Assembly (NCBI GenBank): GCA_039804105.1 | Contig: JBDRZU010000002.1 | Span: 288,001-352,000 of the forward strand | Direction: 5' to 3' | Origin: a candidate division WOR-3 bacterium | GTDB taxonomy: Bacteria; Hydrothermota; 32-111 | Length of the DNA: 64,000 bases | Part shown: one piece after another, positions 14,092-30,874 of the stretch | How positions within the stretch are numbered: position 1 is the first letter of the stretch | How the letters are laid out: the number at the start of each line of letters is the position of its first letter | The notes under the pieces: generated by a model | What the model was told of the DNA's origin: nothing | Database searches by the model: none | Seen by the model: only the letters and a program-made list of their open reading frames with translations | Position numbers and translations under genes: made by a program

Positions 14092-14528
14092 ATAACCAGG
14101 ATAATCAATTGTGTTATAAGATTTGCAATAATACCAGCCATTATATCATCAAGTATTATTCCGGTTGGGCCTTCAATATTTTCAAATTTATCAAGAAAGA
14201 ATATTTTCGAAATATCAAGATATCTGAAGATCAGTATTGAAAAAAACATGACAAAAAAATTTTTAGGTAAAAACATCACCGATATTAACGCTCCAAGAAG
14301 TTCGTCAACTACTATTTTTCTATCATCTCCAGAAAATTTTTTTGAATTGGATATACTCACATAAGAAAGAAAAAGAATAAAAACAAAAAGATAATAGATG
14401 ATAAAAAAATTAACATTCTTGAAAAAAAACAATAACAAAAAGAAGAGAAAAGATACTATCGTTCCACCACCTTTGATATATCCAATAAAAAAAACCGTAT
14501 TAACGATTGAATATAAAATCTCTATCAT
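14088..14528 (-). CDS. pgpA: Phosphatidylglycerophosphatase A
   Basis: IVVDELLG, FRYLDISK, GIILDDIMAG in a small membrane protein. Confidence 0.88.
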   Translation of the reverse strand: MIEILYSIVNTVFFIGYIKGGGTIVSFLFFLLLFFFKNVNFFIIYYLFVFILFLSYVSISNSKKFSGDDRKIVVDELLGALISVMFLPKNFFVMFFSILIFRYLDISKIFFLDKFENIEGPTGIILDDIMAGIIANLITQLIILVI

Positions 14529-15262
14529 CTGTAAATTTCTGGAATCTTTTTAAGTTCTTTTATCTCTTCCTGTGAAAAAAGTGAGAGATAATTCAGAATT
14601 ATTATTATTCTTTTCTCCTTTTTAAAAATTCCAACACCTTCTATGTATTTCAACTTTTCCTCAGGTAAAAAAGGTGGGATTTTCTTTATATCAGATTTTT
14701 CCATTTTCACAATACCAATAAGTTTATCAACATAAAAACCTATTCTTAAATCATCAAGTTTCATTATAACTATCGATCCATTCTCATTTCTCTTATTTAG
14801 TTTTAAACCAAATTTCTCTCTGAGATCAAAAAGAGGTAGAAATCCTTCTTTGTCATTTAAAACTCCAAAGAAACTTTTACTTTTTATTCCAATATCAAGT
14901 GGATCTTTGTATTTAATTATCTGCTTTACAAGATCTGAATCTATACCATATTCTTCCTCATCCAATTTGAAAGATACATATTCTTTTTCCTCTTCGAACT
15001 CATTCTCTTTTTTTGAAATTTGCTTTTCTAAAAGAAATATGTTTTCTTCCCTTTTTTGTTCAACTGTTTCAAAATCTTGATTGTTTTCATTTATAATATC
15101 CATCTTCCTATCAGAAGAGTTTTCTTCTTTGATCTCTTTTTTCTCATACTCTTCGGTTTTCATGGTACCATTTTCATTTTGTTCTTTGAGTTTTTCCTTT
15201 TTATCTTCAGTTTTATGTTTATCACTTTTGAAAAGAGAAGAAAGGTCAACTTTCTTTTTCAT
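14525..15262 (-). CDS. cheW: CheW-like coupling protein with a long charged N-terminal extension
   Basis: YVSFKLDEEEYGI, GVLN...LPLFDLREKFGL, IGFYVDKL, YIEGV. The first ~90 aa are E/K-rich low complexity. Confidence 0.85.
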   Translation of the reverse strand: MKKKVDLSSLFKSDKHKTEDKKEKLKEQNENGTMKTEEYEKKEIKEENSSDRKMDIINENNQDFETVEQKREENIFLLEKQISKKENEFEEEKEYVSFKLDEEEYGIDSDLVKQIIKYKDPLDIGIKSKSFFGVLNDKEGFLPLFDLREKFGLKLNKRNENGSIVIMKLDDLRIGFYVDKLIGIVKMEKSDIKKIPPFLPEEKLKYIEGVGIFKKEKRIIIILNYLSLFSQEEIKELKKIPEIYR

Positions 15263-16091
15263 ATTTTTCCCCCAGAATCTCTTTTAATTTGAGTTCGGCT
15301 TTTTGAGCCCATTTACTGAATCTATTCTTTTTAATCAATTCTTTTAAAATTGTAATACCTTTTTTTTCCATTCCTGCGGAGAGATGAACAAGTCCAAGAT
15401 AATAATAAGCTTCAAGATGGTTTGGCCCAAGTTGGATAGTATCTTTGAGAAACTTTATAGAATCATCATACATCTCCCTTTCCATATAGATAAGGCCAAG
15501 ATAAAAGTTCGCATACATCAAAGCAACCCTGTCCTTCGAATTTTTTAAAACATATGTTAAATGTTCTATAGCTTCTCCGTATATGCCTTTTTTGAAACAG
15601 ACAAAACCAAGATTATTTTTGGCAATCGAATTTTCAGGATCTATCTGTAAAACTTTTTGAAAAACTATCATCGCATCATCATATCTTTCCTTATTTATAT
15701 ATGCCCATCCGAGAAGATCAAGTGTTTTAACATCTTTTGGAGCAAGAGAACTTGCCTTTTCCAAAACCTCTATTGCATCATCGTATTGTTCTTCCACGAG
15801 AAAGTTCCACCCTTTATCTATGTAGGTCGATAGATCAACTTTTGATATTCTAATGTTCTGAACAAAATTTTCAAATGAACTCTTATCCATTTTTTTTGTT
15901 TTTAACTTTTTTGCAAGTTCCTTTATTTTTATATCCGTTTGGACAAGAAAATCATTGAGTTCAAGTATTTCTTTATGAAGATTTACTATTTGATTTTTAA
16001 CACTCTTTTCATCATAAGAATTCGTATCGATCTGGGATGATAAAATGTCAATCTCTTTTTCAAGATCTCTTTTAAATTCTTTAAATTTCAT
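15246..16091 (-). CDS. Coiled-coil plus TPR protein
   Basis: N-terminal heptad-like helix, then about 5 TPRs (LLGWAYI, NNLGFVCF, FYLGLIY, AYYYLGL). Confidence 0.85.
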   Translation of the reverse strand: MKFKEFKRDLEKEIDILSSQIDTNSYDEKSVKNQIVNLHKEILELNDFLVQTDIKIKELAKKLKTKKMDKSSFENFVQNIRISKVDLSTYIDKGWNFLVEEQYDDAIEVLEKASSLAPKDVKTLDLLGWAYINKERYDDAMIVFQKVLQIDPENSIAKNNLGFVCFKKGIYGEAIEHLTYVLKNSKDRVALMYANFYLGLIYMEREMYDDSIKFLKDTIQLGPNHLEAYYYLGLVHLSAGMEKKGITILKELIKKNRFSKWAQKAELKLKEILGEKYEKES

Positions 16092-17112
16092 TTAAAAGTT
16101 CCTCTATCTTTTTTGCTATATATTTTCTATCTAAAACAAAATCTACAGCACCAGTTTCCTCAGCAGATTTTGGCATTCCATAGATAAGAGCACTCTCTTT
16201 TGATTCCACTATATTTTTTCCATTCATTTTTTTTATAATTTTAACCCCTTCACTTCCATCTTTACCCATACCTGTTAGAACAACACCGATAATTCTATTT
16301 TTAAAATATTTTACTGCAGAAATCATCATTATATCAGCAGATGGACGAACAGAATGGTATGGAGGATCATCCGTATGTATGATGTATCCGTTTTCATCAA
16401 ATACCATGTGTTTTCCACCCTGAGCTATAACACAATCACCATTTAGAAGTTTATAGTTATCATAGGATTCAAAAACATTCAGATTGGATATTGAATCAAG
16501 TCTTTCCGCAAAAGATTTTGTAAAACCAGCAGGCATATGTTGAACTATTGCAATCGCTCCATCGATATCATTCTTTATATTAGGTATTATATCCATCAGG
16601 GATTTAGGGCCTCCTGTTGAAGACGCTATAGCTACAAGTTTTGTAGCTTCAACTCTTTTTTTATTGAAAATTTTTTCATTTTTTTCAATTTCCAAAACCG
16701 ATTGATTCAAATTCATAAGATTGGCTTTTACACCTGTTTTTAATTTCACAATAATTTCATTTTTCTTTTCCTTATAATCTAAAGAGGATGGTTTTTCAAC
16801 AACATCTATTGCTCCAAGTTCAAGTGCTTTCAATGCGATTTTCGATCCAGTTTTTGTATATGAACTAACTATTAGAACCGGTAAACTTTTTATCCTCAGA
16901 ATATGTTGAAGTGCTATAAGACCATTCACTTTTGGCATCTCAATATCGAGTGTCACAATATCAGGATCAACTTCTCTTATTTTATCTATCGCTTCAAGTC
17001 CATCACTCGCTTCAGCAACCACTTCAAAATCCTCATCTGAATTTATTATATCCTTCAAAATTCTTCTAATCAAAGCGGAGTCATCAACCACAAGGACTTT
17101 AAACTTTTTCAA
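16081..17112 (-). CDS. cheB: Chemotaxis response regulator methylesterase CheB
   Basis: REC domain (VVDDS, TLDIEMP) plus esterase motifs ASSTGG, VQHMP, RPSAD, LTGMGKDG. Confidence 0.96.
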   Translation of the reverse strand: MKKFKVLVVDDSALIRRILKDIINSDEDFEVVAEASDGLEAIDKIREVDPDIVTLDIEMPKVNGLIALQHILRIKSLPVLIVSSYTKTGSKIALKALELGAIDVVEKPSSLDYKEKKNEIIVKLKTGVKANLMNLNQSVLEIEKNEKIFNKKRVEATKLVAIASSTGGPKSLMDIIPNIKNDIDGAIAIVQHMPAGFTKSFAERLDSISNLNVFESYDNYKLLNGDCVIAQGGKHMVFDENGYIIHTDDPPYHSVRPSADIMMISAVKYFKNRIIGVVLTGMGKDGSEGVKIIKKMNGKNIVESKESALIYGMPKSAEETGAVDFVLDRKYIAKKIEELLNEI

Positions 17113-17588
17113 ATGAAAATCTCCCCATTTTTAAACGAAATTACTCTTATGATACCATTTTTCACTGTAAATTCAACAGACCTACTATAATCACTACCAA
17201 CATCTTCAGCAACGATTGGAATCCTCAATTCTTTTAACATTTTTCTTGCCATTTCCACATTTCTATATCCTATAGAATCTTCTACACTCTTTATGAAAGT
17301 TGAAAACATATTTGCACCACCAACTATTTTTGATTCCATCCTGTATTTTTTTGCACCAAGTTGTTCCATCTCTAAAATAAGGTTTGAAAGCCCACTATCA
17401 CAGTATTTGTATGGGTTAAAAACAACATTTGAATAGGTTCGTGAAGGTAACATATAGTGGATCATTCCTCCTATCTTTTTTTCCCTATCAAATAAAGTTA
17501 AAGCAACACACGATCCAAGGCCTATCGTTTTTAAAACATCGTCTTCAAAACCTATATTAGCATCAGCTATCTTTATATTGATTATCAA
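17109..17588 (-). CDS. cheD: Chemoreceptor glutamine deamidase CheD
   Basis: TIGLGSCV, GGMIHYMLP, KIVGGANMF, IGYRN, AEDVG. Confidence 0.93.
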   Translation of the reverse strand: MIINIKIADANIGFEDDVLKTIGLGSCVALTLFDREKKIGGMIHYMLPSRTYSNVVFNPYKYCDSGLSNLILEMEQLGAKKYRMESKIVGGANMFSTFIKSVEDSIGYRNVEMARKMLKELRIPIVAEDVGSDYSRSVEFTVKNGIIRVISFKNGEIFI

Positions 17589-18381
17589 TTTTTTTAAAAA
17601 CCCTCTCTTTAATATTTATTGGTTTGTAAAGTATTTTTGTGTTACCTGTTAAAATTTCAACCTTCCCAAGAACAAGAAATCCATCAGGAAGTAAAAGTTC
17701 ATAGAATAAATTGAAAATTTTTTCCTGAAACTCTTTTGAAAAATATATGAGAACATTTCTACATATTATAAAATCAAATTTTCCGAGTGTAAAGAGTATA
17801 TTTTCCTCTTTTATATCAACAAGTTTAAAATAAACATTTTCTTTCAACGATTCATCTATTGAATAATAATCTCCCATCTTTTTAAAATATCTGTTAATCT
17901 CACTTTCAGTCAACTCTATAAGAGAATAATCTTTATAAAGTCCTATATTAGCTTTTTTTATAGCATCCTCATCAACATCGATTCCAACTATTTCATAGGT
18001 GAATTCATTTTTTAATTTTAACCTTTTTATTATCATATTCAAAGAATATACTTCTTCTCCAGTAGAACATCCCACACTTAAAATCCTTATTCTCTTCTTT
18101 TTTTTTATAATTTCGGGGAAAATAATCTCTTCAAGATAATCAAATGTTTCCCTATTTCTAAAAAACCTTGTAACATTTATCGTTAATGTTTCCTTTAATA
18201 TGTTCAATTCCTCTTTATCATTTTTTAAAAATTGTAGATACTCCATAAAAGATTTTTTGCCTGTTGCTCTCATTCTGACCATAAGCCTTCTTTTGAAAGG
18301 TCTCTCTTTGTAAATGTTACCATCGATGCCGATCTTTTGGCTTATATAATCAACAAGAATTTTATAATCTATTTCATCCAT
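17563..18381 (-). CDS. cheR: Protein-glutamate O-methyltransferase CheR
   Basis: TINVTRFFRN, SVGCSTGEEVYS, FDFIICRNVLIYF, LLPDGFLVLG. Confidence 0.95.
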   Translation of the reverse strand: MDEIDYKILVDYISQKIGIDGNIYKERPFKRRLMVRMRATGKKSFMEYLQFLKNDKEELNILKETLTINVTRFFRNRETFDYLEEIIFPEIIKKKKRIRILSVGCSTGEEVYSLNMIIKRLKLKNEFTYEIVGIDVDEDAIKKANIGLYKDYSLIELTESEINRYFKKMGDYYSIDESLKENVYFKLVDIKEENILFTLGKFDFIICRNVLIYFSKEFQEKIFNLFYELLLPDGFLVLGKVEILTGNTKILYKPINIKERVFKKIDNQYKDS

Positions 18382-19972
18382 TTCTAACAGTGTTAATTGT
18401 TTTTTTCAGTATTTCATTGTTGGGTTGCAGTTTTAAAGCTTCTTCCCAAAATTTTAGCGCATCCTCCTTTTTTCCTTTTCTATATTTGATATTTCCCAAT
18501 TTGTAAAAAACATCAAAATCTCCCTTATTCATATTCACGATCTGCTCAAGAACTATCTCAGCAGCCTCAAAATTTTTTTCCAAGAAGTAGAATTCAATCA
18601 ACGATTTATACGGTAAAACCTCATCACCACATACCTCTACACTCTTTTTCAAAAAATTTCCAGCACTTTCATATTTCCCAACAGCAAGATACATCTGTCC
18701 GAGATTATAATGATACTGCCATACTGAAGGGTCATTTTTGGAAAGTTCAAAAAATATTTCTGTTGCTTCGTTTATCATTCCATATTCAAAATATATCAAA
18801 CCCAAAAAATATTTTGCATATTTTAAACCTTTATCAATGTTTAAAGCCATCTTTAACTTTTCTTCTGCATCCGAAAAAAGATTTTCTTTGAAAAGGAGTA
18901 TACCATAGTTAGCAAGAATTTTGGGATTCTCGGGTTCCATCTTTACTGCTCTTTCATAAAACTCTTCAGCTCTTTCAAAAATTCCTAAACGTTCATATGT
19001 AAGAGCGATATTGTTAAATAGTGGAACACTCACAATACCCAATTTTAAAAGTTCCTCAAAATATTTTAAAGATTCATTGTAATCACGCATTCTAAAATAT
19101 ATGAGACCAAGATAAAAATATGCTTTTACATCACTCCTATCAAGTTGTATTATATGTTTAAATTCCCTTATCGCTTCTTCATACATTTCAGTCAAAAGAA
19201 AAGCAATACCAAGATTATAATGTTCCATTATCTTGTTCTGGGAATCGACGATCATCTCCGCACTCTTTTCCTCACCAGCATATATATAACCAAGTTTCAG
19301 TAAGGTATAAAGTTCCTTCCCTGTTTCATATTTTCCAACAGTTGATATTTCAAAAATCTCTTTAACGGTTTTGAATCCATCAACAAGTGAGAATACATAT
19401 CTCGTGATCTCATTATCTATCTCCTCTTCTTTTTTTATTCCCGTTTTCACAAGGACAGTTTTTTCCGAAGGCAATTCTTTTTCGATTATTGACCATTCAT
19501 CAATTTTTCTTGCCTCTTCAAGAAGAACATCATCAGCTTCTATTTCAACCGTAATCGTTTCGGTAACAGGTTCGATATTTGGCTCAAAGTTAAAAAATCC
19601 AGTTTTCCAAGTCAAAAGAGTGAAAATACTATCGGTAATCTGTTGTTTTATCCTTTTTTCAAGAACCTCTTTTGAAACAAAATTCATCTCAACGAGTATA
19701 TCACCGAGTCTTTTTTTCGATTTTATTTCCTCCTGATATTCAAGTGCTTTTTCCAATTGCTCTTTTGTGATATCGTTTGATTTTAACAGAAGATTCCCAA
19801 TCCTTTCCTCTCTGTTAACAATAGAACAATAAATTATTTTACCATCCTTGAAAAATATATCTCCAAAATTTTTCTTATCCGATACACTTAAAACTCCTGT
19901 CTTCCTCCCAAGAGAAAGTAACTGTATTATATCGGGTAAAGATGCTTCCTGTAAATTTCCCCTTATAGCCAT
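18374..19972 (-). CDS. DUF4388 (PatA-N-like) domain plus TPR protein
   Basis: AIRGNLQEASLPDIIQLL...GRKTGVL, RLGDILVEMNFVS, WKTGFFNF, LLEEARKIDEW, then about 8 TPRs. Confidence 0.88.
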   Translation of the reverse strand: MAIRGNLQEASLPDIIQLLSLGRKTGVLSVSDKKNFGDIFFKDGKIIYCSIVNREERIGNLLLKSNDITKEQLEKALEYQEEIKSKKRLGDILVEMNFVSKEVLEKRIKQQITDSIFTLLTWKTGFFNFEPNIEPVTETITVEIEADDVLLEEARKIDEWSIIEKELPSEKTVLVKTGIKKEEEIDNEITRYVFSLVDGFKTVKEIFEISTVGKYETGKELYTLLKLGYIYAGEEKSAEMIVDSQNKIMEHYNLGIAFLLTEMYEEAIREFKHIIQLDRSDVKAYFYLGLIYFRMRDYNESLKYFEELLKLGIVSVPLFNNIALTYERLGIFERAEEFYERAVKMEPENPKILANYGILLFKENLFSDAEEKLKMALNIDKGLKYAKYFLGLIYFEYGMINEATEIFFELSKNDPSVWQYHYNLGQMYLAVGKYESAGNFLKKSVEVCGDEVLPYKSLIEFYFLEKNFEAAEIVLEQIVNMNKGDFDVFYKLGNIKYRKGKKEDALKFWEEALKLQPNNEILKKTINTVRNG

Positions 19973-19974
19973 TT

Positions 19975-21633
19975 TCAAACCTCAAACTCTACATACAACC
20001 TGTCGGTATCACTTATCCATTCCTTAATCAACTTTGAAGAATCAAATTCACCTTTTCTAATATATTCTCTCTTTTTAATCGTTCCTGATGGAAACACTTT
20101 TTTTATAAGATCCTCGGTTATGCTCATCTCATACTTTTTCAACTCAAGAAAATATTTTTCAATTTCAGATAATGGAGTCGTAACATAATCTAAAAGAAAA
20201 TTAAAAAGTAAATCGTTCATTTTAATACCATATTTCAAAAGTAAATTTTTATACACATTCTTTTTTATAAAAAGTGAAGTTGGTTGAATATTGTAGGAGG
20301 TGTACTTATTGAACATATCAAGGATCTCTCTATCATCGATGCTGAATTTTCTTTGGAGAGTTATGACCTTTACAACATTATTTGAAAGAATATTCTTTAT
20401 CACAGGAACATTTTCTCTTCTTTCATAGATTTTATCAAGATCATCTATCAAAACAAGATCCACCTCGCTTATAAATTTCATAACATAAAAATTGTTTGCT
20501 GCCTGTTGTATGTTATTTCTGTTTATGAAAATGACCCTTTTATCAAGCAAACTATTAAAGAGTCCATTCAATATATGCGTTTTTCCTGTTCCAGGGCTAC
20601 CGGTTATCAAAACGATTTTATCAGTGTTAACTCCATTAATTATTTCACTGATTTTGTTTATTACAGATCTGTTCGAAGAATCTATAACAAAATTATTCAG
20701 ATTCATCAGAATACTTGTTTCTTTTTCAAAGAAGGTAAAATAGTTTATCTTTTCTTTTAAAAGATCAATTTTTTCTTTCAAGATCTCCACTCGATCTGGA
20801 TCAAAAAGCATCGATTCAATCTCTTTTGCTTCATTTTTAAACTTTTTCACATTAAGAAGTCCAAACTCCTTATGCAGATCAACAAGTTTTTTAACATTCT
20901 CAGTAAACTTTTCAAACTCTTTTCTGATATACCCAATATCTTTTGAATTGATAACATTTTTAAGATGCTCGACGTTAAAACCTTTCATCTCCCACACATA
21001 TAGTTTTTCTATAAATTCCTCTTTACTTTCCTGCTCGTCGAGTTTCTCTTCAACCCCTGCCTCTTTTTTTACCTGGCTTATGAAATCAACAAAATTTATA
21101 AAATTGTTATTTGTTTTCTTTTCCTTTATTAGATTATATACTTTAAACTGTAATAAAAATTCTCTTATCCTTTCAATATTCTTTATTTCCTCAACCTTTT
21201 TTGATGATGTAATCAAAAGAAAAGTGTTCGATTTTAAACCTAAAAAAAGTTCCTCAACAAATCTTAAAAGTTCAGGATGTTTTTCGATGTGATCAAAATT
21301 TTTTACCAGAAGAATATTCGCATAGGGAAAAATATTTTTGTATTTGATTAGTGTATCAGTTTTTTTTAGTTCAAAAATTTCTTTAAAATCAAGAACAAAA
21401 AGATATAATTCCCTGAATTTTCGTGAAAGATCGAAAAAAAGTTTATCAGCGAATTCATTCCCCGATCCATCGTTAGAATAAATTATTTCAAATCTATTTG
21501 TAAGATACCCTGTCGATAATGAATAGGAATATTCAGATTTTAAAAAGGGATCATCAGGTAAATTTTCTTTTACCGACCTGATACTAAAAACTGTAAAATT
21601 TTCCTGAAATTCCTTTATATCATTTTGGTTCAT
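19975..21633 (-). CDS. DnaA/Hda-like AAA+ protein with two tandem ATPase-like modules and no DNA-binding domain IV
   Basis: C-terminal module: NFVIDSSNR, GSPGTGKTHIL, DLVLIDDL. Degenerate N-terminal module: IIYSNDGSG, NILLVKNFD, LLITSSK. Confidence 0.8.
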   Translation of the reverse strand: MNQNDIKEFQENFTVFSIRSVKENLPDDPFLKSEYSYSLSTGYLTNRFEIIYSNDGSGNEFADKLFFDLSRKFRELYLFVLDFKEIFELKKTDTLIKYKNIFPYANILLVKNFDHIEKHPELLRFVEELFLGLKSNTFLLITSSKKVEEIKNIERIREFLLQFKVYNLIKEKKTNNNFINFVDFISQVKKEAGVEEKLDEQESKEEFIEKLYVWEMKGFNVEHLKNVINSKDIGYIRKEFEKFTENVKKLVDLHKEFGLLNVKKFKNEAKEIESMLFDPDRVEILKEKIDLLKEKINYFTFFEKETSILMNLNNFVIDSSNRSVINKISEIINGVNTDKIVLITGSPGTGKTHILNGLFNSLLDKRVIFINRNNIQQAANNFYVMKFISEVDLVLIDDLDKIYERRENVPVIKNILSNNVVKVITLQRKFSIDDREILDMFNKYTSYNIQPTSLFIKKNVYKNLLLKYGIKMNDLLFNFLLDYVTTPLSEIEKYFLELKKYEMSITEDLIKKVFPSGTIKKREYIRKGEFDSSKLIKEWISDTDRLYVEFEV

Positions 21634-22235
21634 CTTTTATTTTTTTCAAATCTAGTTGTAAGATTCTTTATAACCGAAAACATCGACTCTTTAAGTGTTT
21701 CTATAACACCTATCCCCTTCGTTGCAACCGACTCAAAACTTTTCCATTCGTTTTTAAGTTGAAGAGTTGTTTTTATGGTTTCAATATCAAGAGCTGTTGG
21801 AAGATCCCTTTTATTGTATTGGATTATGAGAGGAATATTTTCTATCGATAGATTGTTCTCTTTTAGGTTTATTATAAGATTCTCAAAAGATTCTATGTTA
21901 TCTTCCATCCTATCAGCCTGTGAATCAATAACAAAAACAACTCCATCAGCACCCTGTAAAACGAGTTTTCTTGTTGAATCGTAATAAACCTGACCTGGAA
22001 CAGTATAGAGTTGGAATTTTGCATTGAAGTTACCAATTTTGCCAACATCAAAAGGTAGAAAATCAAAAAATAGAGTTCTATCCATTTCTGTTGCAAGTGA
22101 TGTCATCTCTCCCCTTTTGTCAGCAGGAATTTTACTGAATATGTATTGAAGGTTCGTTGTCTTACCTGACCTTCCTGGACCATAATAAACTATCTTACAG
22201 ATTATCTCTTTTTTTGCATAGTTTACAAGTGACAT
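21630..22235 (-). CDS. mglA: MglA-family small GTPase
   Basis: KIVYYGPGRSGKTTNL, DRTLFFDFLP, LYTVPGQV, QYNKRDL, SVATKG. ATG 22235 follows GAGG. Confidence 0.93.
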   Translation of the reverse strand: MSLVNYAKKEIICKIVYYGPGRSGKTTNLQYIFSKIPADKRGEMTSLATEMDRTLFFDFLPFDVGKIGNFNAKFQLYTVPGQVYYDSTRKLVLQGADGVVFVIDSQADRMEDNIESFENLIINLKENNLSIENIPLIIQYNKRDLPTALDIETIKTTLQLKNEWKSFESVATKGIGVIETLKESMFSVIKNLTTRFEKNKR

Positions 22236-22242
22236 AATTACC

Positions 22243-23346
22243 TCAATCACCTTTTATTGTGTTGAAAACATCAGCATCGGTCGATTCTATTCCTCTCAAT
22301 TTTAACTTGAACTCATCAACATTTGTAACCGACTGTATTGCATCCTCATAGGAAATGATTCCACTTTTGTACAATCTCATGATCGATTGATCGAATGTAT
22401 GCATCTGATACATTGAACCTTCTTCTATCGCTGTTGGTATGAGAAGTGTTTTTATTGGATCAAGAAGGTATTCTTTTATCGTTGGCGTATTTATCATAAC
22501 TTCGGTTGCTGGAACCCTTCCCTTTCCATCTATTCTTGGAAGTAATCGTAATGAAATTACTCCAACAAGGGTTGTTGCAAGAAGAACCCTTATATGTTGC
22601 TGTTGGTGTGGTGGATAGAACGATAGTATTCTATTGATCGTTTCGGATGCATTCAGAGTATGCAGGGTCGAGAGAACAAGATGTCCTGTGTCCGCTGCTT
22701 TGATCGCGACATCCATAGTATCAACATCTCTTATCTCCCCCATGAGTATTATATCAGGATCCTGTCTTAAAACATGTTTTAAAGCACTCTCGTACGAGTT
22801 CGTGTCATTACCAACTTCTCTTTGAGAGATAACAGATTTTTTATCTCTAAAAAGATACTCTATGGGATCCTCTATCGTAATGATATTTTTCGAATGGTTT
22901 TCATTTATGTATTCTATCATCGCAGCAAGTGTTGTAGATTTTCCTGAACCTGTTGTACCGGTTGTAAGAATAAGCCCCCTCGGTTTTTCTGCCATCTCTT
23001 TTAAAACTGGTGGGAGATTCAGTTCATCTATTGATTTTGCGGATATAGGTATCGTTCTCATCGCTATTGCAACACTTCCTCTTTGCAGGTAAACATTTAC
23101 TCTGAACCTTGATAAGCCAGCTACTCCTATCGCAAAATCTATCTCTTTTTTTGCAGCAAACTCTTCCTGTTGAGTTTTCGTCATTATCTTTAATGCAATA
23201 TTCTTCAACTCATCTGGGCTCATCGGTTCTTCTTTTAAAATTTGCAATTTTCCATCTATTCTTAAAATAGGTGGAGTGCCCGCTTTTAGATGAAGATCCG
23301 ATGCTCCATCCTTTACCATTTTTTCAAGCAACGCTTTCAATTCCAT
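22243..23346 (-). CDS. pilT: Type IV pilus retraction ATPase (PilT/PilU family)
   Basis: ASDLHL, GTTGSGKSTT, TIEDPIE, RQDPD, GEIRD, TGHLVLSTLHT. Confidence 0.9.
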   Translation of the reverse strand: MELKALLEKMVKDGASDLHLKAGTPPILRIDGKLQILKEEPMSPDELKNIALKIMTKTQQEEFAAKKEIDFAIGVAGLSRFRVNVYLQRGSVAIAMRTIPISAKSIDELNLPPVLKEMAEKPRGLILTTGTTGSGKSTTLAAMIEYINENHSKNIITIEDPIEYLFRDKKSVISQREVGNDTNSYESALKHVLRQDPDIILMGEIRDVDTMDVAIKAADTGHLVLSTLHTLNASETINRILSFYPPHQQQHIRVLLATTLVGVISLRLLPRIDGKGRVPATEVMINTPTIKEYLLDPIKTLLIPTAIEEGSMYQMHTFDQSIMRLYKSGIISYEDAIQSVTNVDEFKLKLRGIESTDADVFNTIKGD

Positions 23347-23926: not shown

Positions 23927-25348
23927 TCATTTTTTCTTTTGGTTTATAAATTTTATCCACTCCTGAAAATTTCCATCGAAAGAAGATTTTTCTTCTTTCT
24001 TTTCTTCCGATTTGTTTTCATTATCCCGTTTTTCTTTTGTACTCTTTATCTCGTAATCCACTTCTTTTTTCTCTTCAATTTTTTCCTCAGATTCTTTTTT
24101 ATCTGTTTCTTCCATCATTGTTTTATTTTCTGTCTGTTCAACATTTTTCGTTTCAAATGTGGCATTTTCTTCAAGGTTACCAAACTTTTTTTCAAAATCA
24201 ATTTTTTCCTTTTCAGAAATATTTTCGATAGATAAGGATCTGTTAAGCTTTTCAATAAGCTCAGCTCTATTTTCTTTTTTCTCGACCTCATCACTTTTAA
24301 ACATTTCTTCATCAACCTCATTTTTTATCATAAGTTCTCTAAGGGTTCTAATCTTTTCTGCATATCTTTCCTCATCGGGATTCTGACGAAGAAGTGTCTG
24401 ATAAATATCTATAGCTTTTTCATACTTTTTCTGTTCAATATATATATTGGCCATCTCTTCGGAAAAGTATAGAAATCTTTTTGCACCACTCAACTCATAA
24501 GGAATAATCTTTTCTTCTTTTTTCTCTTCCCTTTTTATAAAAGGATCAACATCCTTTTTAACAAATTGTTCCTCATCGATTATTCCAACACTTTTGCTTT
24601 CCCTGGTTTCATCTTTATTTGTATTATCAGTGTTATTTTTCTCCTCTTTTGTAAAAATAAAAGAAGTTTTTGAATGTTCTAAAACCATTCCATTTTCTTC
24701 TTTTGTTTCAATCTCTTTAATCTTTTCCGATTTTTTCTCATCTTTCTTTTGATCTGTTTTCTCTTCCTTTTTTTCTTCCTCATCAAAACTGATGACATTT
24801 GAGGAATGTTGAATGATAAAGTCATCAACTATTTTTTTCTCTTCAAAAGCATCTTTTTGAATAACTTCTTTCTTTTCTTCCTCTTTCTTTAAAAGTTTTT
24901 CTTTTTCTTCTTTTATTCTATTTTCCTCTTCAATCTTCCCTTTAATAAACTTCAATTCCCTTTTTGCATCTTCGTTAAGAGGATCAAGGAAAAGAATCGT
25001 ATCATAAAGTTTTAAGGCCTCCTGTAGGTTTCCTTCCCTTTTCTTTATTTCTGCAAGTTCAGAGAAGGCAACTATGTTTTGAGGATCAAGCTTGATGACC
25101 TTTTCAAAATTTTTTGAAGCGTTAACAAAATCTTTTTTTTCTTTAAGAGCTTTTCCATAGAGAACAAGAGCTGAAACATTATCAACATTGTATCTTAAAC
25201 CCTCTTTTAAAACCGCAAGAGATTCATCAACCATATTTATTTTCAAATAGATATTTGCAAGTTTAATAAAAGATTTAGATTTAGGATTCTTAGAAATATC
25301 CTCAAGTAATTCTTTTATCTCTTTTTCATACATACTGTAAGAGTTCAA
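23927..25348 (-). CDS. TPR protein with long acidic low-complexity linkers
   Basis: N-terminal TPRs, E/K-rich linker, internal TPR (SEEMANIYIEQKKYEKAIDIY), C-terminal NFQEWIKFI. Likely start is TTG 25348 after GGAGG, or ATG 25333. Confidence 0.8.
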   Translation of the reverse strand: MNSYSMYEKEIKELLEDISKNPKSKSFIKLANIYLKINMVDESLAVLKEGLRYNVDNVSALVLYGKALKEKKDFVNASKNFEKVIKLDPQNIVAFSELAEIKKREGNLQEALKLYDTILFLDPLNEDAKRELKFIKGKIEEENRIKEEKEKLLKKEEEKKEVIQKDAFEEKKIVDDFIIQHSSNVISFDEEEKKEEKTDQKKDEKKSEKIKEIETKEENGMVLEHSKTSFIFTKEEKNNTDNTNKDETRESKSVGIIDEEQFVKKDVDPFIKREEKKEEKIIPYELSGAKRFLYFSEEMANIYIEQKKYEKAIDIYQTLLRQNPDEERYAEKIRTLRELMIKNEVDEEMFKSDEVEKKENRAELIEKLNRSLSIENISEKEKIDFEKKFGNLEENATFETKNVEQTENKTMMEETDKKESEEKIEEKKEVDYEIKSTKEKRDNENKSEEKKEEKSSFDGNFQEWIKFINQKKK

Positions 25349-25379
25349 AGTTCCTCCGTTGAGATTTCTTAAAATAAAA

Positions 25380-25449
25380 ATTATAATTAAAATATATAAA
25401 AGTGTCAACAACTCTTTTATATTGATTTTTGTTTATAATTTAATATAAT
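25380..25449. promoter_or_regulatory. Divergent sigma70-type promoters
   Basis: Minus strand: TTGACA(25403-25408)-N17-TATAAT(25380-25385). Plus strand: TTGATT(25422-25427)-N16-TATAAT(25444-25449), 6 nt before ATG 25456. Confidence 0.65.
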
Positions 25450-25455
25450 TTAATA

Positions 25456-25800
25456 ATGAAAAGGATCATACTCATTGAAGACGATCTTGATATAATTGAA
25501 CTTTTACTTGATATACTTTCCGAAAAGTATCAAATCTTCTATGAAACGAATGTTGAGAATTTTTTTAACCGAACCGATATAGAGACATTTGATCTTATAA
25601 TAACCGACTATCTTTTGAACAATTATTCAGCAAAGGATATAATCCAAAAATATACTCATAAAAAAATTCTCATCATTTCAGCCCTATCCATATCATCACT
25701 TGAGATTTTAAATTTTGTTGATAATAAAAGGGTATTCTATTTACAAAAACCTTTCGTTATCGATACTCTTATTTCAACAGTTGATAGTATCATCACCTGA
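25456..25800 (+). CDS. Single-domain response regulator (REC)
   Basis: IILIEDD, LIITDY (phospho-acceptor Asp), ISA, LQKPF. Confidence 0.88.
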   Translation: MKRIILIEDDLDIIELLLDILSEKYQIFYETNVENFFNRTDIETFDLIITDYLLNNYSAKDIIQKYTHKKILIISALSISSLEILNFVDNKRVFYLQKPFVIDTLISTVDSIIT

Positions 25801-26481: not shown

Positions 26482-28083
26482 TTATTTTATATCCCTTATT
26501 ATGTGTGGTGTTATGAAGATTAAAACTTCTTTGTTATTTTTGGTAGATATATCCCTTTTGAACAGATTACCTAAAATCGGTATCGCTCTTAAAATTGGTA
26601 TTCCACTTTCAGATCTCTGATCCTCTGTGAGAATGAAACCACCCATCACAACAGTTTCACCATCTGAAACCATTTGAACGGTTTTTGCCTGTGTCTTATT
26701 TATTATTGGCTGTCCACCTGCATCAGCGGTAACAGTTGAAAGTTCCGCTTCTATTTCAAGAGTTATATCCTCTGCTGAGTTTACATGTGGTATCACATTT
26801 AAAATTGTTCCCACAGTATATTTTGTATAGTTGACTGTTCCATCTGTGTTTATAGTTGTAAGGAAGAATTCTTTTCCACCAAGAATGTTTGCCTGAGTAT
26901 TGTTTGTAGTTGTTATCCTTGGATTTGACACAGTTTTTGACTTTCCAACAACCTCAAGTGCATCGAGTCGTGCACTCAATTGACCGAAATCTCTTGTTGT
27001 TCCTATTGTTACGGTTCCAGCTGTCATACTCGAAGGATCAACTCCCGGAATTCCTCCACCGATTGTGACCTGATTTATTCCAACATTGTTCAATGTCCAT
27101 GATATTCCAAGTTCTTTTGAATCGTTCAACTGGATCTCAACAACTTTTACAACGATTTCAACCTGGAGGTTTTTCTTATCAAGATCCTCTATAATACTCT
27201 GTATTCTGTTTTGAACATCCTGAATATCCTTAACGATTATTGAGTTTGTTCTTTCATCTATCGTTATTATACCTCTTTTCGACAGAACAGGTCTTAAAGA
27301 ATTCTGTAAAACTTTTGGATTAGCAAATTCGAGTTTATACACTGTTGTTATCAAAGGTAAGGCATCCTGCATAGCTGTTTGTTCTGAAGAGAACTCTTTG
27401 TATGTTCCAACCCTTATCATGTTTGGATATTCTTGATAGGTCAGCCCCGCTAACCTTGTTACCATATCGAAAATATCTTTCCATGGAACATCTTTTACAT
27501 GGATTGTTACTCTACCGGTCACAGAACTTGATATCACAAGGTTTACCCCAACATAATCAGCGATTCCTCTTAAAAGTGTCACAACATCAGCATTTTCGAC
27601 ATCAAGTGAAATCAAGAAATCTGAATTCTTTGTTGTAACACCACCGGATTGTTCTTTGGATGTTGGTTTGGCGGTTGATGCTTTCCATACGGGGATATCG
27701 GTATTTACATTCTTGTTCAGTTGAATAACGATATCGTTGCCTTTATATTCCTTTGAATACGCATACTTATCATCTGTTTCAATCATCACTCTTAAAAAGT
27801 TTGTTTCATAGTCCTTTATGATCTCAAACGAAATAATCCCTGAACCATTGTTAACCTTATAGTATCCTCCATTTAACCCATTGTCTATACCTATAAGATC
27901 GATAACTATCATGTTTGGTGAAGTTATCGAAAAATCTGTAAAATTTGCAACTTTATCAAGTGAAAATCTTATCTCCGTTTTGCCATTTACGGTGTTAACA
28001 GTTATATCGTTGAGAAGCCCAAGAGAAAAAACCGAGATTGAGAGAAGAAATACAAAGGACAAAATAAAAATTCTCTTTATCAT
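26482..28083 (-). CDS. pilQ: Type IV pilus secretin PilQ
   Basis: Signal peptide, AMIN-like domain, ISLDVENAD, DERTNSIIVKD, DGETVVMGG, IPILGNLFK, LIFITPHI. Confidence 0.93.
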   Translation of the reverse strand: MIKRIFILSFVFLLSISVFSLGLLNDITVNTVNGKTEIRFSLDKVANFTDFSITSPNMIVIDLIGIDNGLNGGYYKVNNGSGIISFEIIKDYETNFLRVMIETDDKYAYSKEYKGNDIVIQLNKNVNTDIPVWKASTAKPTSKEQSGGVTTKNSDFLISLDVENADVVTLLRGIADYVGVNLVISSSVTGRVTIHVKDVPWKDIFDMVTRLAGLTYQEYPNMIRVGTYKEFSSEQTAMQDALPLITTVYKLEFANPKVLQNSLRPVLSKRGIITIDERTNSIIVKDIQDVQNRIQSIIEDLDKKNLQVEIVVKVVEIQLNDSKELGISWTLNNVGINQVTIGGGIPGVDPSSMTAGTVTIGTTRDFGQLSARLDALEVVGKSKTVSNPRITTTNNTQANILGGKEFFLTTINTDGTVNYTKYTVGTILNVIPHVNSAEDITLEIEAELSTVTADAGGQPIINKTQAKTVQMVSDGETVVMGGFILTEDQRSESGIPILRAIPILGNLFKRDISTKNNKEVLIFITPHIIRDIK

Positions 28084-28091
28084 TTATTACC

Positions 28092-28670
28092 TCACTTTTT
28101 TTTCTTTGTATCAACAGTTTTAACCAATTTGATCACTTTATTTCTAACGACTCCATATTCATCCAACTTAAAGATTACGGAGTCCTGTTCTATTTTCAAA
28201 AGAATACCATTTTTTATCCTCTGTCCCTCATAAAATATGAACCCAAGCCCAGAAGCATCTTTCAGTAAGGCAAGTTTTCCATTCTTTCCTTTTATCATTC
28301 CAAAATACATTGCACTCTCGATATCGATCTGTACTTTTCCATCTCTCTGTTGTTCAAGTATCGAAACGAAAGGATCATTTTTTGTTTTCGTTTTGAAAGT
28401 ATATGTTTCAACAGTAAAAGGAAGTACTGATGTTGTATCGTAAGGCAAAGAATCTGAATTTTGTTCCTCAACACCCGTTGTTGTAACATTCGTATCTGAT
28501 GTTGAAGCAATATTCTCTGCTGTTTTCACATTCTTTTTAGAAGTCAAAGCGTTTGATGATTTTTCAATCGCTGAATTCACAGGATTGCCTCTTGAACAGG
28601 AGAACATGAGAAATATAACCATTACTATTGAAAAAAGAAGGGTTGATTTACTATTTTTTCTTTTTAACAT
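28092..28670 (-). CDS. pilP: PilP-like lipoprotein
   Basis: Lipobox MFSC, NDPF motif, ALLKDASG. Lies between pilO and pilQ. Confidence 0.7.
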   Translation of the reverse strand: MLKRKNSKSTLLFSIVMVIFLMFSCSRGNPVNSAIEKSSNALTSKKNVKTAENIASTSDTNVTTTGVEEQNSDSLPYDTTSVLPFTVETYTFKTKTKNDPFVSILEQQRDGKVQIDIESAMYFGMIKGKNGKLALLKDASGLGFIFYEGQRIKNGILLKIEQDSVIFKLDEYGVVRNKVIKLVKTVDTKKKK

Positions 28671-29244
28671 TTTTACCTTCCTCTGTTTTTGTTTGGGCTC
28701 CTGGACCTTTATAGTAGGTTGATAAGGTTAACACAGTTTGAATCGTATTGAGATTTTCATCAGGATTTTTTAACGGTTTAATCGAAATACTGTTAACCTT
28801 CGTTATCCTTTTTTGGTTTCCCATATCAGTTAAAAACAATCCAAGAGAAGAAAAATTTGAGTTGAGAGTTATCTCCTGATTGATACTTGCGTAGTCGTTT
28901 GTTACAGATACATTCAAAGGTTTTATGTTCATTATTTTAACATTGTTCTTATTTGCATAAACGGTTAAACTGTCAAGAGCATCTTCGAGTAATTGTGAAT
29001 CTGGGAGCATTTTGTTGGCAATTTTCAACTGATTCTCAAGTACTTTCAACCTTTTGGTGTACTCTACCAAACTTGCTGCTACCTTTCTCGCTTCATTCAC
29101 CTGAGTGTTCAGTTTATCATTTTCAGCTTTGAGTTGAGAAATCGTTTTTGAATTTTTTGAATAATCGAATTTCCAGTATAGAAAGAGGATCGCTATCAGA
29201 ACAACCACGGTTATTATAGTTTTTAATAAATTATTTTTTTCCAT
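28651..29244 (-). CDS. pilO: Type IV pilus biogenesis protein PilO
   Basis: TM, coiled coil, MLP motif, FSSLGLFLTDM...RI. Operon position. Confidence 0.85.
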   Translation of the reverse strand: MEKNNLLKTIITVVVLIAILFLYWKFDYSKNSKTISQLKAENDKLNTQVNEARKVAASLVEYTKRLKVLENQLKIANKMLPDSQLLEDALDSLTVYANKNNVKIMNIKPLNVSVTNDYASINQEITLNSNFSSLGLFLTDMGNQKRITKVNSISIKPLKNPDENLNTIQTVLTLSTYYKGPGAQTKTEEGKNVKKKK

Positions 29245-29253
29245 CTGTCACCC

Positions 29254-29832
29254 CTATTTTTTGTAGGTACAATTTATTTCAAAAGAGATTATGTCGTAGC
29301 CACCCTCTGGTTTGTTAACAATATCTTTTAATATGAAATTATCAAAATATTCTGTTTCTTTTTTCAGATTTGTTAGAAGATCGGTTATCATAAGGTTTGA
29401 AAATGTTTTTCCCTTTAAAATTAACCTTTTATCTTTTACGGTTAACTCTTCGAGCCAAACATATTCTGGGAGAAGTTGGTTTATCTTATCAAGAAGTTGG
29501 GCATAGGCAAACTTTCCGGATATAAGATTTTTTATTGTTTCCATCTTTGCATTTATTTCACTCTCTTTCTGTTTCATCTTTTCAACCTTTGCAACTTCTT
29601 CCTGTAATTTTTTAAGTTCATTCTGTTTTTCAGTTATTTTCTTTTTCAACTGATTTATCTGCCCAACCTGAGAAAAATGTATTATAAAAATAATTATGAA
29701 AAGGAGTACTGCAACACCTATTGAAACAAAGAAACCGAGATTCGTTGGGATCTTTATTCCGATTTTTGGTATCCCACCTTCACTCTTCTTTCGCTTTCTT
29801 TCCTCTTCTGGTAGTAAATTTATCTCTATCAT
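29254..29832 (-). CDS. pilN: Type IV pilus biogenesis protein PilN
   Basis: IEINLLP motif, TM, coiled coil, LPEYVWL. Confidence 0.9.
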   Translation of the reverse strand: MIEINLLPEEERKRKKSEGGIPKIGIKIPTNLGFFVSIGVAVLLFIIIFIIHFSQVGQINQLKKKITEKQNELKKLQEEVAKVEKMKQKESEINAKMETIKNLISGKFAYAQLLDKINQLLPEYVWLEELTVKDKRLILKGKTFSNLMITDLLTNLKKETEYFDNFILKDIVNKPEGGYDIISFEINCTYKK

Positions 29833-29845
29833 CTTTACCTCTCTT

Positions 29846-30874
29846 TTATGGATTTCTTAAACTCAAACCTATTGAAGGAACAAGTAATGGTGATATTTTT
29901 TCAACCTCTTCAAGAGTCAGAAGACCTTCTTTGATTTTTACTTTTCTGAACGGATCAAGTTTTTCAACATTGATTTCAAATCTGTTCTTAAAATAATCAA
30001 GAATTTCGGGCCCATTCGCTCCACCACCAGATATGAAAATTTTGTCAATCTTTTCCCTGTTTGTAAATGGGATAGCCCTTTCAATATGTGTGCATAGTTC
30101 ATCATAGAACGACTCAAGACCCTCTTTAATCTTATCTTCAGAAATCTCGTTTAAAGTTTCTCCTTTAAAAACTTTGTCGAGTTGATCCTTTGTTATTCCG
30201 GGGATCTTTTGTAATAACGACTTTATAGCAGTTGTAACATCCCTTGTAAAAAGATTGTTTGTCCCCTCAATAAAACTCAATATCGTATTTTCATAACCGA
30301 TGTGAACCAGTGTAACTATCTCATTTGGAACTGGATCATAGTTTGCTTCAAAACAATTCTGTATTGTAAACGCTGGTACATCAATAACACATGGATTCAG
30401 TTCCATGTCCTTTATGAGTGTAACGAAGGGATAGAGTATCTCCTTCTTCGCTGCCACAAGCAAAACATCGATTTTTCCCTGTTCTTCAGATGGACCTAAA
30501 ACTTTGTAATCAAGTTGAACATCCTCGATGCTGTATGGAATATTCGTTTCTGCTTCCTGTTTGACCATAATCGAAAGTTCACTATCTTTCATCTGATCCA
30601 TTTTTAATTTTTTAACTATAACGCCTCTTCCGATCAAAGCACATGAAACATCTTTCTCTTTCACATCCCTTGACACCAAAAGATTCTTAACTGTGTCAAC
30701 CAGTTGCAATCTGTCCATAATTTCACCATCAGCGATTGCTATATCCGAAAGTTCTGAGAAACCAAAGTCCTTCAACACAGGTTCACCTGAAGAAAGATCA
30801 ATGATTGAGTATTTTATAAACGAACTTCCAATGTCGAGACCAAGATAAGTTTTTTTTCTTTTTTTAAAAGCCAT
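29846..30874 (-). CDS. pilM: Type IV pilus assembly protein PilM
   Basis: GLDIGSSFIK, VLLVAAKK, ISGGGA, IGLSLR; actin-like fold. Confidence 0.93.
   Translation of the reverse strand: MAFKKRKKTYLGLDIGSSFIKYSIIDLSSGEPVLKDFGFSELSDIAIADGEIMDRLQLVDTVKNLLVSRDVKEKDVSCALIGRGVIVKKLKMDQMKDSELSIMVKQEAETNIPYSIEDVQLDYKVLGPSEEQGKIDVLLVAAKKEILYPFVTLIKDMELNPCVIDVPAFTIQNCFEANYDPVPNEIVTLVHIGYENTILSFIEGTNNLFTRDVTTAIKSLLQKIPGITKDQLDKVFKGETLNEISEDKIKEGLESFYDELCTHIERAIPFTNREKIDKIFISGGGANGPEILDYFKNRFEINVEKLDPFRKVKIKEGLLTLEEVEKISPLLVPSIGLSLRNP

Follow-up and report, generated by a model that had tools for sequence, protein, structure and literature searches.

The 64-kb stretch of DNA examined here (the window; G000:C2:288001-352000) belongs to the genome of a candidate division WOR-3 bacterium, assembled in two contigs: the window contig, C2, and one other, C1. 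Its subject is a set of nine open reading frames (ORFs) on the minus strand, at positions 14525-23346, in which genes for chemosensory adaptation are packed together with genes for a small GTPase, an ATPase derived from DnaA and a pilus motor. Every neighbouring pair overlaps, by 4-26 nt; the ORF list agrees with the positions and the abutting arrangement given in a preliminary description made from the letters of the window, and Pfam bears out the identity of each gene.

Reading in the direction of the genes, the array opens with a PilT-type pilus ATPase (367 aa, 22243-23346; Pfam T2SSE 1.9e-50). Its gene overlaps by 8 nt that of an MglA-type small GTPase (206 aa as called, 21630-22250; Arf 3.5e-12, also Ras), the true start of which probably lies 5 codons inside the called one. 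Then come, each across a 4-nt overlap, a DnaA-derived tandem AAA+ protein (552 aa, 19975-21633; weak AAA/STAND matches at aa 321-408) and a scaffold protein made of a PATAN (DUF4388) domain, a winged helix and tetratricopeptide repeats, or TPR (534 aa, 18374-19978; DUF4388 7.9e-38 plus TPR). The scaffold gene overlaps by 8 nt the gene of the methyltransferase CheR (272 aa, 17563-18381; CheR 3e-49, CheR_N 1e-11), which is followed by the receptor deamidase CheD (159 aa, 17109-17588; CheD 1.5e-29; 26-nt overlap) and by CheB, a receiver joined to a methylesterase (343 aa, 16081-17112; Response_reg 4.8e-24, CheB_methylest 8.3e-54; 4-nt overlap). Closing the series are TPR281, a 281-aa protein with matches to Pfam TPR families and a coiled-coil-like N-terminus (15246-16091; 11-nt overlap with cheB), and a 245-aa CheW (14525-15262; CheW 5.5e-22 over profile positions 1-137 of 138; 17-nt overlap) that carries a Lys/Glu-rich N-terminal extension of about 90 aa.

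The Gly-rich SAM motif of CheR, the Ser/His/Asp blocks of CheB and the Cys/His motif of CheD can be read in the translations, as the preliminary description had reported; we take these to hold the catalytic residues. That description had also let the array stop at nine genes, and here it was too narrow. Tight junctions continue at both ends, with TPR494 and efp (elongation factor P, EF-P) upstream across gaps of 10 and 12 nt, and with the genes of PgpA, CinA, LigT and RecA downstream, pgpA overlapping cheW by 4 nt.

The signalling half on the second contig

Profile searches find no methyl-accepting chemotaxis protein (MCP), CheA or CheC in the 64 kb, just as had been noted from the sequence; all matches lie on C1. 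The picture of a module without receptors and kinase does not survive them, since C1 encodes four MCPs, one CheA, and a CheW, a CheY and a CheC. The MCP signalling domain PF00015 passes its cut-off at five places in four genes, all on C1, the CheA dimerisation domain PF02895 has one match in the genome, and there is one cheC gene. CheW domains occur in three genes, those of the window CheW, a 132-aa CheW and CheA itself, the window protein being a second CheW beside the CheA-linked one.

These signalling genes are gathered at G000:C1:759124-772306, a single co-directional array by Pfam on C1:756000-775999. It runs from a 1112-aa MCP through CheW, CheY, CheA, CheC and a 902-aa TPR protein to a 371-aa PATAN protein, three Roadblock/LC7 (MglB-like) proteins and a 358-aa TPR protein. 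CheA (626 aa, C1:766301-768181) has Hpt, P2, dimerisation, HATPase and CheW domains, and Pfam finds no receiver domain in it.

By tblastn, CheR, CheD, the esterase domain of CheB and the 552-aa AAA protein are each single-copy in the genome, and the paralogues of CheB match its receiver part only. CheC is the usual partner of CheD, and these two are split between the loci; likewise CheA stands in one and the receiver-bearing CheB in the other, where its receiver implies probable control by the single CheA. Since CheR, CheD and CheB have no second copies, the two loci are halves of one pathway. An MCP also stands within the array of some relatives (see below), and with receptors and kinase encoded elsewhere in this genome, the receptor-less appearance is therefore an effect of where the window ends and not biology. 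A chemotaxis module that looks receptor-less in one window can owe this to the window's edge.

The 1112-aa receptor (C1:768968-772306, minus strand; L009:12969-16307) has no segment resembling a transmembrane helix and carries a cytoplasmic SBP_bac_5 solute-binding domain at its C-terminus. Its two MCPsignal domains stand in tandem, the first with a canonical hairpin tip and the second degenerate-looking. Among 10 stand-alone CheA regions of relatives labelled by blastp, 7 have a homologue of 1047-1132 aa ahead of cheW-cheY-cheA; in the CheA region L038, blastp labelled neither a CheW nor a CheY. The remaining three MCPs are transmembrane proteins, with two transmembrane-like segments or membrane-type N-termini.

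Possible substrates of the adaptation enzymes were scanned with a methylation-site consensus from the literature, in which a Glu/Gln pair is flanked on either side by two residues and then a small one. The three membrane MCPs hold 6-7 such motifs each, in heptad spacing on both arms and with Gln pairs included. The count is zero in MglA, the AAA protein, the PATAN-TPR scaffold, TPR281, the window CheW, the 371-aa PATAN protein, the Roadblock proteins and CheA; PilT and the 902-aa TPR protein have one motif each. Methylation and deamidation of scaffolds other than MCPs, which the preliminary description had proposed, finds no support here, and the receptors supply ordinary candidates.

The genome holds a second Mgl module, a canonical MglB-MglA pair at C1:630406-631493, whose MglA is 61% identical to that of the window. 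This mglB-mglA pair is convergent with the gene of a 568-aa transmembrane MCP at a distance of 2 nt (C1:628698-631493; L034:4699-7494), so that a receptor gene adjoins this module too. PATAN (PF14332) occurs five times in the genome (C2:307490, C1:762481, C2:403475, C1:687836 and C1:736070), and with five Roadblock matches as well, polarity-type modules are multiplied beyond the two che-linked loci.

Conservation of the array across the phylum

Homologues of the 552-aa AAA protein are rare: only 27 were found in a collection of 5.8 billion proteins. Those with names come from WOR-3, TA06 or Stahlbacteria metagenome-assembled genomes (MAGs), where they are annotated as 'DnaA/Hda family' or 'AAA family ATPase'. 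We labelled the ORFs of 17 loci from named MAGs by blastp against the proteins of this genome. The AAA homologue has che genes beside it in 13 of them, and one more locus is cut by a contig end. Five keep the full order TPR494-efp-pilT-mglA-AAA-PATAN-TPR-cheR-cheD-cheB-TPR-cheW-pgpA, with cinA next where the contig continues, and two show the same order cut by contig ends. Six are distant, with AAA proteins 33-40% identical in the middle only, and retain mglA-AAA-PATAN-TPR-cheR-cheD as far as their contigs reach; cheB is present in four of these, the TPR gene in three and an MCP within the array in two, one of them (L027) having it behind CheW. One of the 17 stops after pilT-mglA-AAA, and three have no che neighbours. 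Among the last, L030 is a contig of only 5.4 kb, and L031 is a false relative, set aside as another family: its 'homologue' has a DnaA-like N-terminus fused to an ABC ATPase and stands beside lptC and lptA.

Such a gene order is far beyond chance, since relatives share it at protein identities of only 30-40%. A further sample of 20 regions from 11 genomes in 11 families of the same phylum, again with blastp labels, separates a core from its surroundings. MglA or a 135-aa Roadblock protein, followed by AAA, PATAN-TPR and cheR, recurs in 10 of 10 AAA regions from 10 families, while the housekeeping neighbours vary; the AAA gene always lies between an MglA or MglB-like gene and the PATAN-TPR gene, and in two families (f14 and f12) it is an MglB-like gene that directly precedes it. 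A TPR281 homologue follows cheB in 7 of 10 AAA regions (all but f12, f20 and f29) and in most of the che-bearing loci from named MAGs. The CheA locus is no less constant: CheA-CheC-large TPR is present in 11 of 11 CheA regions, with PATAN after it in nine and Roadblock matches in nine.

The two halves are joined in one relative, G012, where a single array of 13 genes reads CheY-CheA-CheC-TPR-PATAN-(TPR+Roadblock)-Roadblock-156-aa ORF-DnaA-like-PATAN-TPR-CheR-CheD-CheB, with a PilB gene divergent alongside. Pfam confirms all of it except the 156-aa ORF, which is MglB-like by blastp only. In relatives from two other families (f21 and f11) the genes of an AAA_22 ATPase, a CheW and a HAMP-MCP extend the window-type array. 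The AAA_22 protein, a P-loop ATPase of 266-277 aa, is encoded between the TPR gene and cheW (L046:12945-13778 and L048:15478-16278); the lineage of the window has no such gene at that place.

Co-occurrence was counted in 150 genomes drawn evenly from the phylum, with a threshold of E<=1e-15 for the AAA family, set to leave out true DnaA, which matches at about 1e-4 to 1e-9. As plain counts, the AAA family is present in 65 genomes and the CheA dimerisation domain in 68; 62 have both, three of the former lack CheA and six of the latter lack the AAA family. FlhA scores above its cut-off in six of the 150 and in none of the 65 that carry the AAA family.

The order is thus conserved across the whole candidate phylum (WOR-3/TA06 by the names of related records). 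Outside it, a Gemmatimonadetes genome, G150, has cheR-cheD-cheB with a PATAN-like 758-aa gene upstream and mglA 15 kb away; the double-DnaA gene lies on another contig behind a large TPR gene, so that no contiguous array is evident there. The preliminary description had called for a search of the whole genome and for a test of conservation in relatives, and had set canonical MCPs with a cognate CheA elsewhere, together with an unconserved gene order, against its own proposal. The MCPs and the CheA were found, with no FlhA or flagellin match in the genome, whereas the order proved strongly conserved.

The ATPase, the scaffold and the link to pili

The AAA protein owes its place near DnaA to its family. 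A profile of 14 homologues (alignment A1) matches domain III of Thermotoga maritima DnaA (2z4r, E 3e-7, query 311-507), whereas PF00308, which matches homologues, misses the window protein itself at E<=0.01. The label 'DnaA-like' given to it earlier therefore stands for the family and not for the single protein. The layout comprises an N-domain (aa 1-170), a linker (about aa 181-306) with a WEMKGFNV signature, and a DnaA-type AAA+ module (about aa 311-507) with Walker A and B; Pfam at E<=0.01 finds no match to DNA-binding domain IV of DnaA. An AlphaFold model has a mean pLDDT of 72.9, with the alpha/beta N-domain at about 90, and Foldseek aligns it with the tandem AAA+ proteins p97, Cdc48 and NSF (E about 1e-7, at a TM-score of only about 0.18) and with DnaA 3r8f. 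In our own reading the N-domain, in which no intact Walker A can be made out, is probably a decayed first AAA+ module.

The relatives of the protein bear on its descent. In a Gemmatimonadetes MAG, a 697-aa homologue matches PF00308 over two stretches with a score of 408 bits and aligns with A1 at 99.6% hhalign probability across the linker and second module, and the nearest Atlas clusters are DnaA/Hda proteins of 590-660 aa, mostly from Gemmatimonadota. Some families have short forms of 380-390 aa, with one AAA+ module and then the linker. The true DnaA of the genome is encoded at C1:1196668-1197108. Likeness to DnaA/Hda proteins thus consists in a second module that aligns with DnaA domain III and in homologues scoring up to those 408 bits. 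The differences are a tandem build with a family-specific linker, the lack of domain IV, a form unlike the short single-module Hda, and a setting among chemosensory and polarity genes rather than replication genes.

The helical linker between the two AAA+ modules is specific to the family. Searched against 1.84 billion representatives, its 126 aa gave 157 matches at E<=0.001 and 76 at E<=1e-10. Of the 76, 31 are single matches of 33-83% identity and represent the real family; two that were checked carry double PF00308. The others fall 2-15 to a long protein, at 22-31% identity, one with DUF835 and one with no Pfam match. P0028, P0029 and others have 7-15 linker matches in a protein of 900-3100 aa, with E down to 1e-62; these repeated matches may reflect either shared ancestry or, as we take it, Lys/Glu-rich helical composition. 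At the other end of the protein, most homologues finish in a tail of 6-8 residues that is hydrophobic-acidic-aromatic or aliphatic (window 19975-20000; L015-L053). This tail is conserved despite low identity elsewhere and resembles the C-terminal peptides by which proteins bind TPR domains or hold CheR; that it is a docking peptide is possible, and only an idea.

The PATAN-TPR scaffold has a second relationship, to pilus motors. Its aa 40-164 match the N-terminus of the third PilB of the genome (30.7% identity, E 1.25e-9, tblastn), and the 'helical insertion' of its PATAN domain, aa 57-116, appears to be a tandem module of MshEN_N/GSPII type. The cyclic di-GMP (c-di-GMP)-binding unit of MshEN is described as two 24-residue motifs (RLGxx...Q) with a 5-residue spacer (PMC5013675); the window protein has a copy at aa 90-113 by a loosened pattern and a near-copy at aa 59-82, with a spacer of 7. 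The loose pattern is passed by 16 of 24 relatives of PATAN-TPR type, some of whose loci represent the same genome twice, and by none of eight ORFs of the 371-aa PATAN type.

A model of aa 1-240 (pLDDT 88.9, pTM 0.81) predicts for the insertion the four-helix fold of an MshEN-type module. It superposes on c-di-GMP-bound MshE (5htl_B) with 58 residues aligned, an rmsd of 1.4 A, 34% identity and Z 7.1, and on GSPII-B of Thermus PilF (8pdk_A) with 59 residues, an rmsd of 2.1 A and Z 6.5; the Foldseek E-values are weak, 0.19-1.2, for so short a region. By the look of the model, aa 164-240 form a generic winged helix. Pfam MshEN has no match on the insertion, its model covering another subdomain: in the PilB paralogue it falls on aa 65-143, against motifs at aa 4-56. 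The predicted four-helix module and the fit on 5htl, with an approximate tandem of 24-residue motifs, are what the scaffold has in common with MshEN and PilF GSPII, from which it differs in that the module is inserted in PATAN instead of standing at the N-terminus of a pilus ATPase, in the spacer (7 against 5) and in an Asn that replaces a Gly. We found no literature description of an MshEN module inside PATAN in a search that covered few subscription journals. The genome has five GGDEF genes, and the scaffold may read c-di-GMP through this insertion.

MglA and PilT are the probable links from the array to the pilus. All 14 aligned MglA sequences (alignment A2) share an unchanged P-loop, DRTLFFDF with an intrinsic Arg, TVPGQ and NKRD, and Thr for Asp in the TxxGQ motif is reported as a feature of the MglA family (PMC3000849). 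Pfam finds no Roadblock gene beside mglA in the window array. Complex prediction for the AAA protein (A1) with MglA (A2) returned 0.00 twice, with no controls, and is uninformative on binding. The PilT of the window is a second paralogue, 45% identical to the PilT of the main pilus locus on C1, where the order is pilB-pilB-pilT-pilC-pilS-pilR-two pilins-pilD; it has the length of PilT and a T2SSE domain only, without the MshEN N-domain that the PilB paralogues carry by Pfam. A third PilB, alone at C2:162772-164457 (L033:4773-6458), carries the MshEN c-di-GMP motif twice in exact form, at aa 4-27 and 33-56; of the main-locus PilBs, one has it once, in a loose version, and in the other these patterns find no copy.

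In this genome, scored 85% complete, FlhA and flagellin have no match, and type IV pili are the only motility apparatus found. Because FlhA is absent from the 65 AAA-bearing genomes of the sample as well, the output is most likely type IV pili via MglA. In families f1, f2, f4, f6, f11 and f21 blastp labels a pilT next to mglA or up to three genes away, or, in f4, next to the AAA gene; the link to pilus genes is weaker than that between che and Mgl.

A probable pathway to pilus polarity and its alternatives

Both halves of the pathway are present, their order is kept, they co-occur, and in one relative they are fused; the coupling of chemosensory genes to a module of MglA/MglB, PATAN, TPR and AAA+ proteins is real and conserved. 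On these grounds we think it probable that one chemosensory pathway, divided between the two loci, steers type IV pili in a bacterium without flagella, and that the nine genes contribute its adaptation enzymes and its GTPase. The polarity or pilus switch of the preliminary description keeps, in this form, its coupling to MglA, to TPR/PATAN scaffolds, to a DnaA-type ATPase and to a pilus motor, and loses its non-MCP substrates. It was also right, as far as could be found, that the array is undescribed: we met no account of a che-mglA-PATAN-DnaA-type array, nor of the ATPase family in such a context, in literature whose coverage was incomplete and thin for subscription journals. The main text of a 2025 survey of 181 WOR-3 genomes is silent on motility, pili, flagella, chemotaxis and MglA.

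Judged by the families of its parts, the pathway would work as follows. The three transmembrane MCPs, and perhaps the soluble one, would drive CheA, while CheR, phosphorylated CheB, and CheD with CheC would adapt the receptors at ordinary Glu/Gln sites. Phosphorylated CheY would act on the Roadblock, PATAN and TPR proteins and through them on the nucleotide state or the pole of MglA, as Frz does in Myxococcus. MglA-GTP would work with the PATAN-TPR scaffold, whose TPR part would be SgmX-like and whose PATAN part would touch PilB or PilC, as in cyanobacteria; together with the co-encoded PilT paralogue they would decide where pili extend or retract. The MshEN-type insertion of the scaffold would admit c-di-GMP as a further input. 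The DnaA-derived AAA+ protein would most likely serve the MglA/PATAN-TPR complex as an assembly or switch factor that depends on ATP; this is the least supported step of the scheme.

Much of this has precedent in the Frz system, which exerts chemosensory control over the MglA/MglB/RomR polarity module and over pilus polarity in Myxococcus (PMC3441718, PMC4546325), where MglA and the TPR protein SgmX are reported to stimulate pili (PMC7519303, PMC7668184). Control of polarity would here be Frz-like, with a cytoplasmic MCP, CheR/CheB adaptation, output via MglA, Roadblock regulators and a TPR effector (PMC3441718, PMC7519303, PMC7668184, PMC4546325); the wiring to GTPase, ATPase and pilus motor is what we did not find described, within that same incomplete coverage. 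According to Wuichet and Sogaard-Andersen (PMC4316618), some mglA genes lie near PATAN genes, and in Myxococcus and Bdellovibrio mglA is away from the genes of its signalling partners; frz and mglBA are not neighbours in Myxococcus, whereas here the parts are co-encoded. Other differences are the presence of CheC and CheD and, as connectors, of PATAN-TPR, PATAN and the DnaA-derived ATPase. FrzE is reported as a CheA-receiver fusion and FrzF as a CheR-TPR fusion; here CheA has no receiver and CheR no TPR. TPR is tied to CheR in other non-flagellar chemosensory pathways of FrzF type too (PMC3447774, PMC2535941), but in the window it is on separate, unfused proteins encoded before cheR and after cheB.

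A second precedent is the cyanobacterial Tax/Pix type, a chemosensory system with a PATAN output; in Synechocystis the PATAN domain is reported to bind PilB1 and PilC (preprint 10.1101/2021.06.11.447907). Proteins of PatA type are PATAN-receiver fusions, whereas the PATAN proteins here have no receiver (in the window scaffold Pfam assigns the C-terminal part to TPR), one is fused to TPR, and MglA/MglB and an AAA+ protein are added. The adaptation enzymes have their own parallel in Bacillus subtilis and Thermotoga maritima, where CheC, CheD, CheR and CheB serve flagella. The same four enzyme families occur here, with a receiver-bearing CheB, but no flagellar genes were found and CheC and CheD are encoded in separate loci.

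Several observations weigh against the pathway as drawn. The host is uncultured and the mechanism is read from its genes; the datasets listed for 14525-23346 include no RNA run, and the assembly, at 1.81 Mb in two contigs, is 85% complete by score, so that absences are not proof. The soluble MCP, encoded next to the CheA-linked genes, has one methylation-type motif. Labels in relatives are mostly from blastp, with Pfam only for L043 and parts of L026, L046, L048 and L053, and since related genomes are not independent, the co-occurrence figures are counts and not statistics. No pilT was labelled in 5 of 11 families (f12, f14, f20, f24 and f29), AccC and ThiE stand between pilT and mglA in other families where this was checked, and only 2 of the 15 related loci looked at share the adjacency to pilMNOPQ. 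Both c-di-GMP motifs of the scaffold have, in this genus, Asn for the conserved Gly at motif position 10, a Gly that many PATAN-TPR relatives keep (alignment A3).

Among the alternatives, the one that fares best has the same chemosensory pathway act through MglA on another output, be it polarity, division, development or a different envelope motor, for instance of ExbB/ExbD type. The uneven linkage to pilT would fit it, as would the five PATAN genes and further Roadblock modules of the genome and the report that MglA of Myxococcus controls a gliding motor too. Yet pili are the only motility apparatus in evidence, a PilT paralogue, or PilB in G012, stands at the edge of the array, and PATAN is documented to bind PilB and PilC, all of which makes another output unlikely.

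It is less likely still that an ordinary cheR-cheD-cheB-cheW operon merely came to lie beside an independent MglA/PATAN module and some housekeeping genes in a compact genome. To be sure, efp, pgpA, cinA, ligT and recA are joined as tightly as the che genes, and AccC and ThiE are inserted in other families. But packing of this kind would hardly preserve (MglA or Roadblock)-AAA-PATAN-TPR-cheR in all 10 families sampled amid changing housekeeping neighbours, provide the CheA locus with a TPR-PATAN-Roadblock block of its own in 9 of 11 regions, fuse the two loci in G012, or let the AAA family track CheA across the phylum. A receptor-independent switch, in which CheR, CheD and CheB modify the TPR, PATAN or CheW-tail proteins, draws on the TPR and PATAN genes that flank cheR and cheB in nearly all relatives, on a window without MCP and on the single motif of the CheA-linked soluble MCP, but it is very improbable: the genome has one CheA and three canonical MCPs whose motifs cluster, the scaffolds have no motif, other families have an MCP inside the array, CheA is present in 62 of 65 AAA-bearing genomes, and the CheB receiver needs a kinase.

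A bolder version of the pathway to type IV pili may be entertained, which we hold tentatively and think rather doubtful. The AAA+ protein would then be the new, ATP-driven core of a polarity switch, assembling MglA and MglB-like proteins with PATAN-TPR, perhaps by inserting its tail into TPR repeats, and a single complex would choose the pilus pole by combining the GTP state of MglA with ATP, c-di-GMP and receptor methylation. Such a switch would be common to at least the WOR-3/TA06 lineage and Gemmatimonadota.

How chemosensory signals reach MglA is a matter of current study in Myxococcus; there the two gene sets lie apart, and the connecting proteins came to light individually. An uncultured phylum encodes the parts list in one or two operons: receptor, kinase, CheY, CheC/CheD/CheR/CheB, three Roadblock proteins, MglA, two PATAN proteins, TPR proteins, PilT and a DnaA-derived ATPase. 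They offer testable candidates for the missing links, namely the reader of phosphorylated CheY, the recruiter of the pilus motor and the possible entry of c-di-GMP through PATAN. They also suggest that a DnaA-type ATPase has taken on a new task beyond replication.

Further features surround the array. At the head of the co-directional genes stands TPR494 (494 aa, 23927-25411, minus strand; Pfam TPR). Whether it is part of the system is uncertain; among the 17 loci from named MAGs it is kept upstream of efp-pilT in L015-L019 only. Some 3 kb upstream of pilT, on the same strand, follow pilM, pilN, pilO, a 192-aa ORF and the secretin gene pilQ (26482-30874; Pfam PilM_2 9.2e-47, PilN 1.5e-13, PilO 7e-18, and Secretin 9.9e-42 plus AMIN), which supply the alignment and outer-membrane components of the pilus. 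A perfect sigma-70 consensus (25408-25380, 12/12) lies at the 5' end of TPR494, in AT-rich window DNA in which 92 sigma-70-type sites were found against 72.7 expected and in which a promoter and terminator scan gave no usable operon limits. For the stretch 14525-23346 itself five DNA datasets from two studies are on record, all of them hot-spring metagenomes and one probably the source sample.

Facing the head of the array, beside that opposite-strand sigma-70 consensus, is a divergent 114-aa ORF (25456-25800, plus strand) with a weak receiver match (E 2.2e-5, below the Pfam cut-off). Farther away, at 52749-55362 on the plus strand, the gene of a protein with a B12-binding domain precedes that of a hybrid histidine kinase (HisKA, HATPase and receiver); by their domains the two could be a cobalamin- or light-linked sensor pair.

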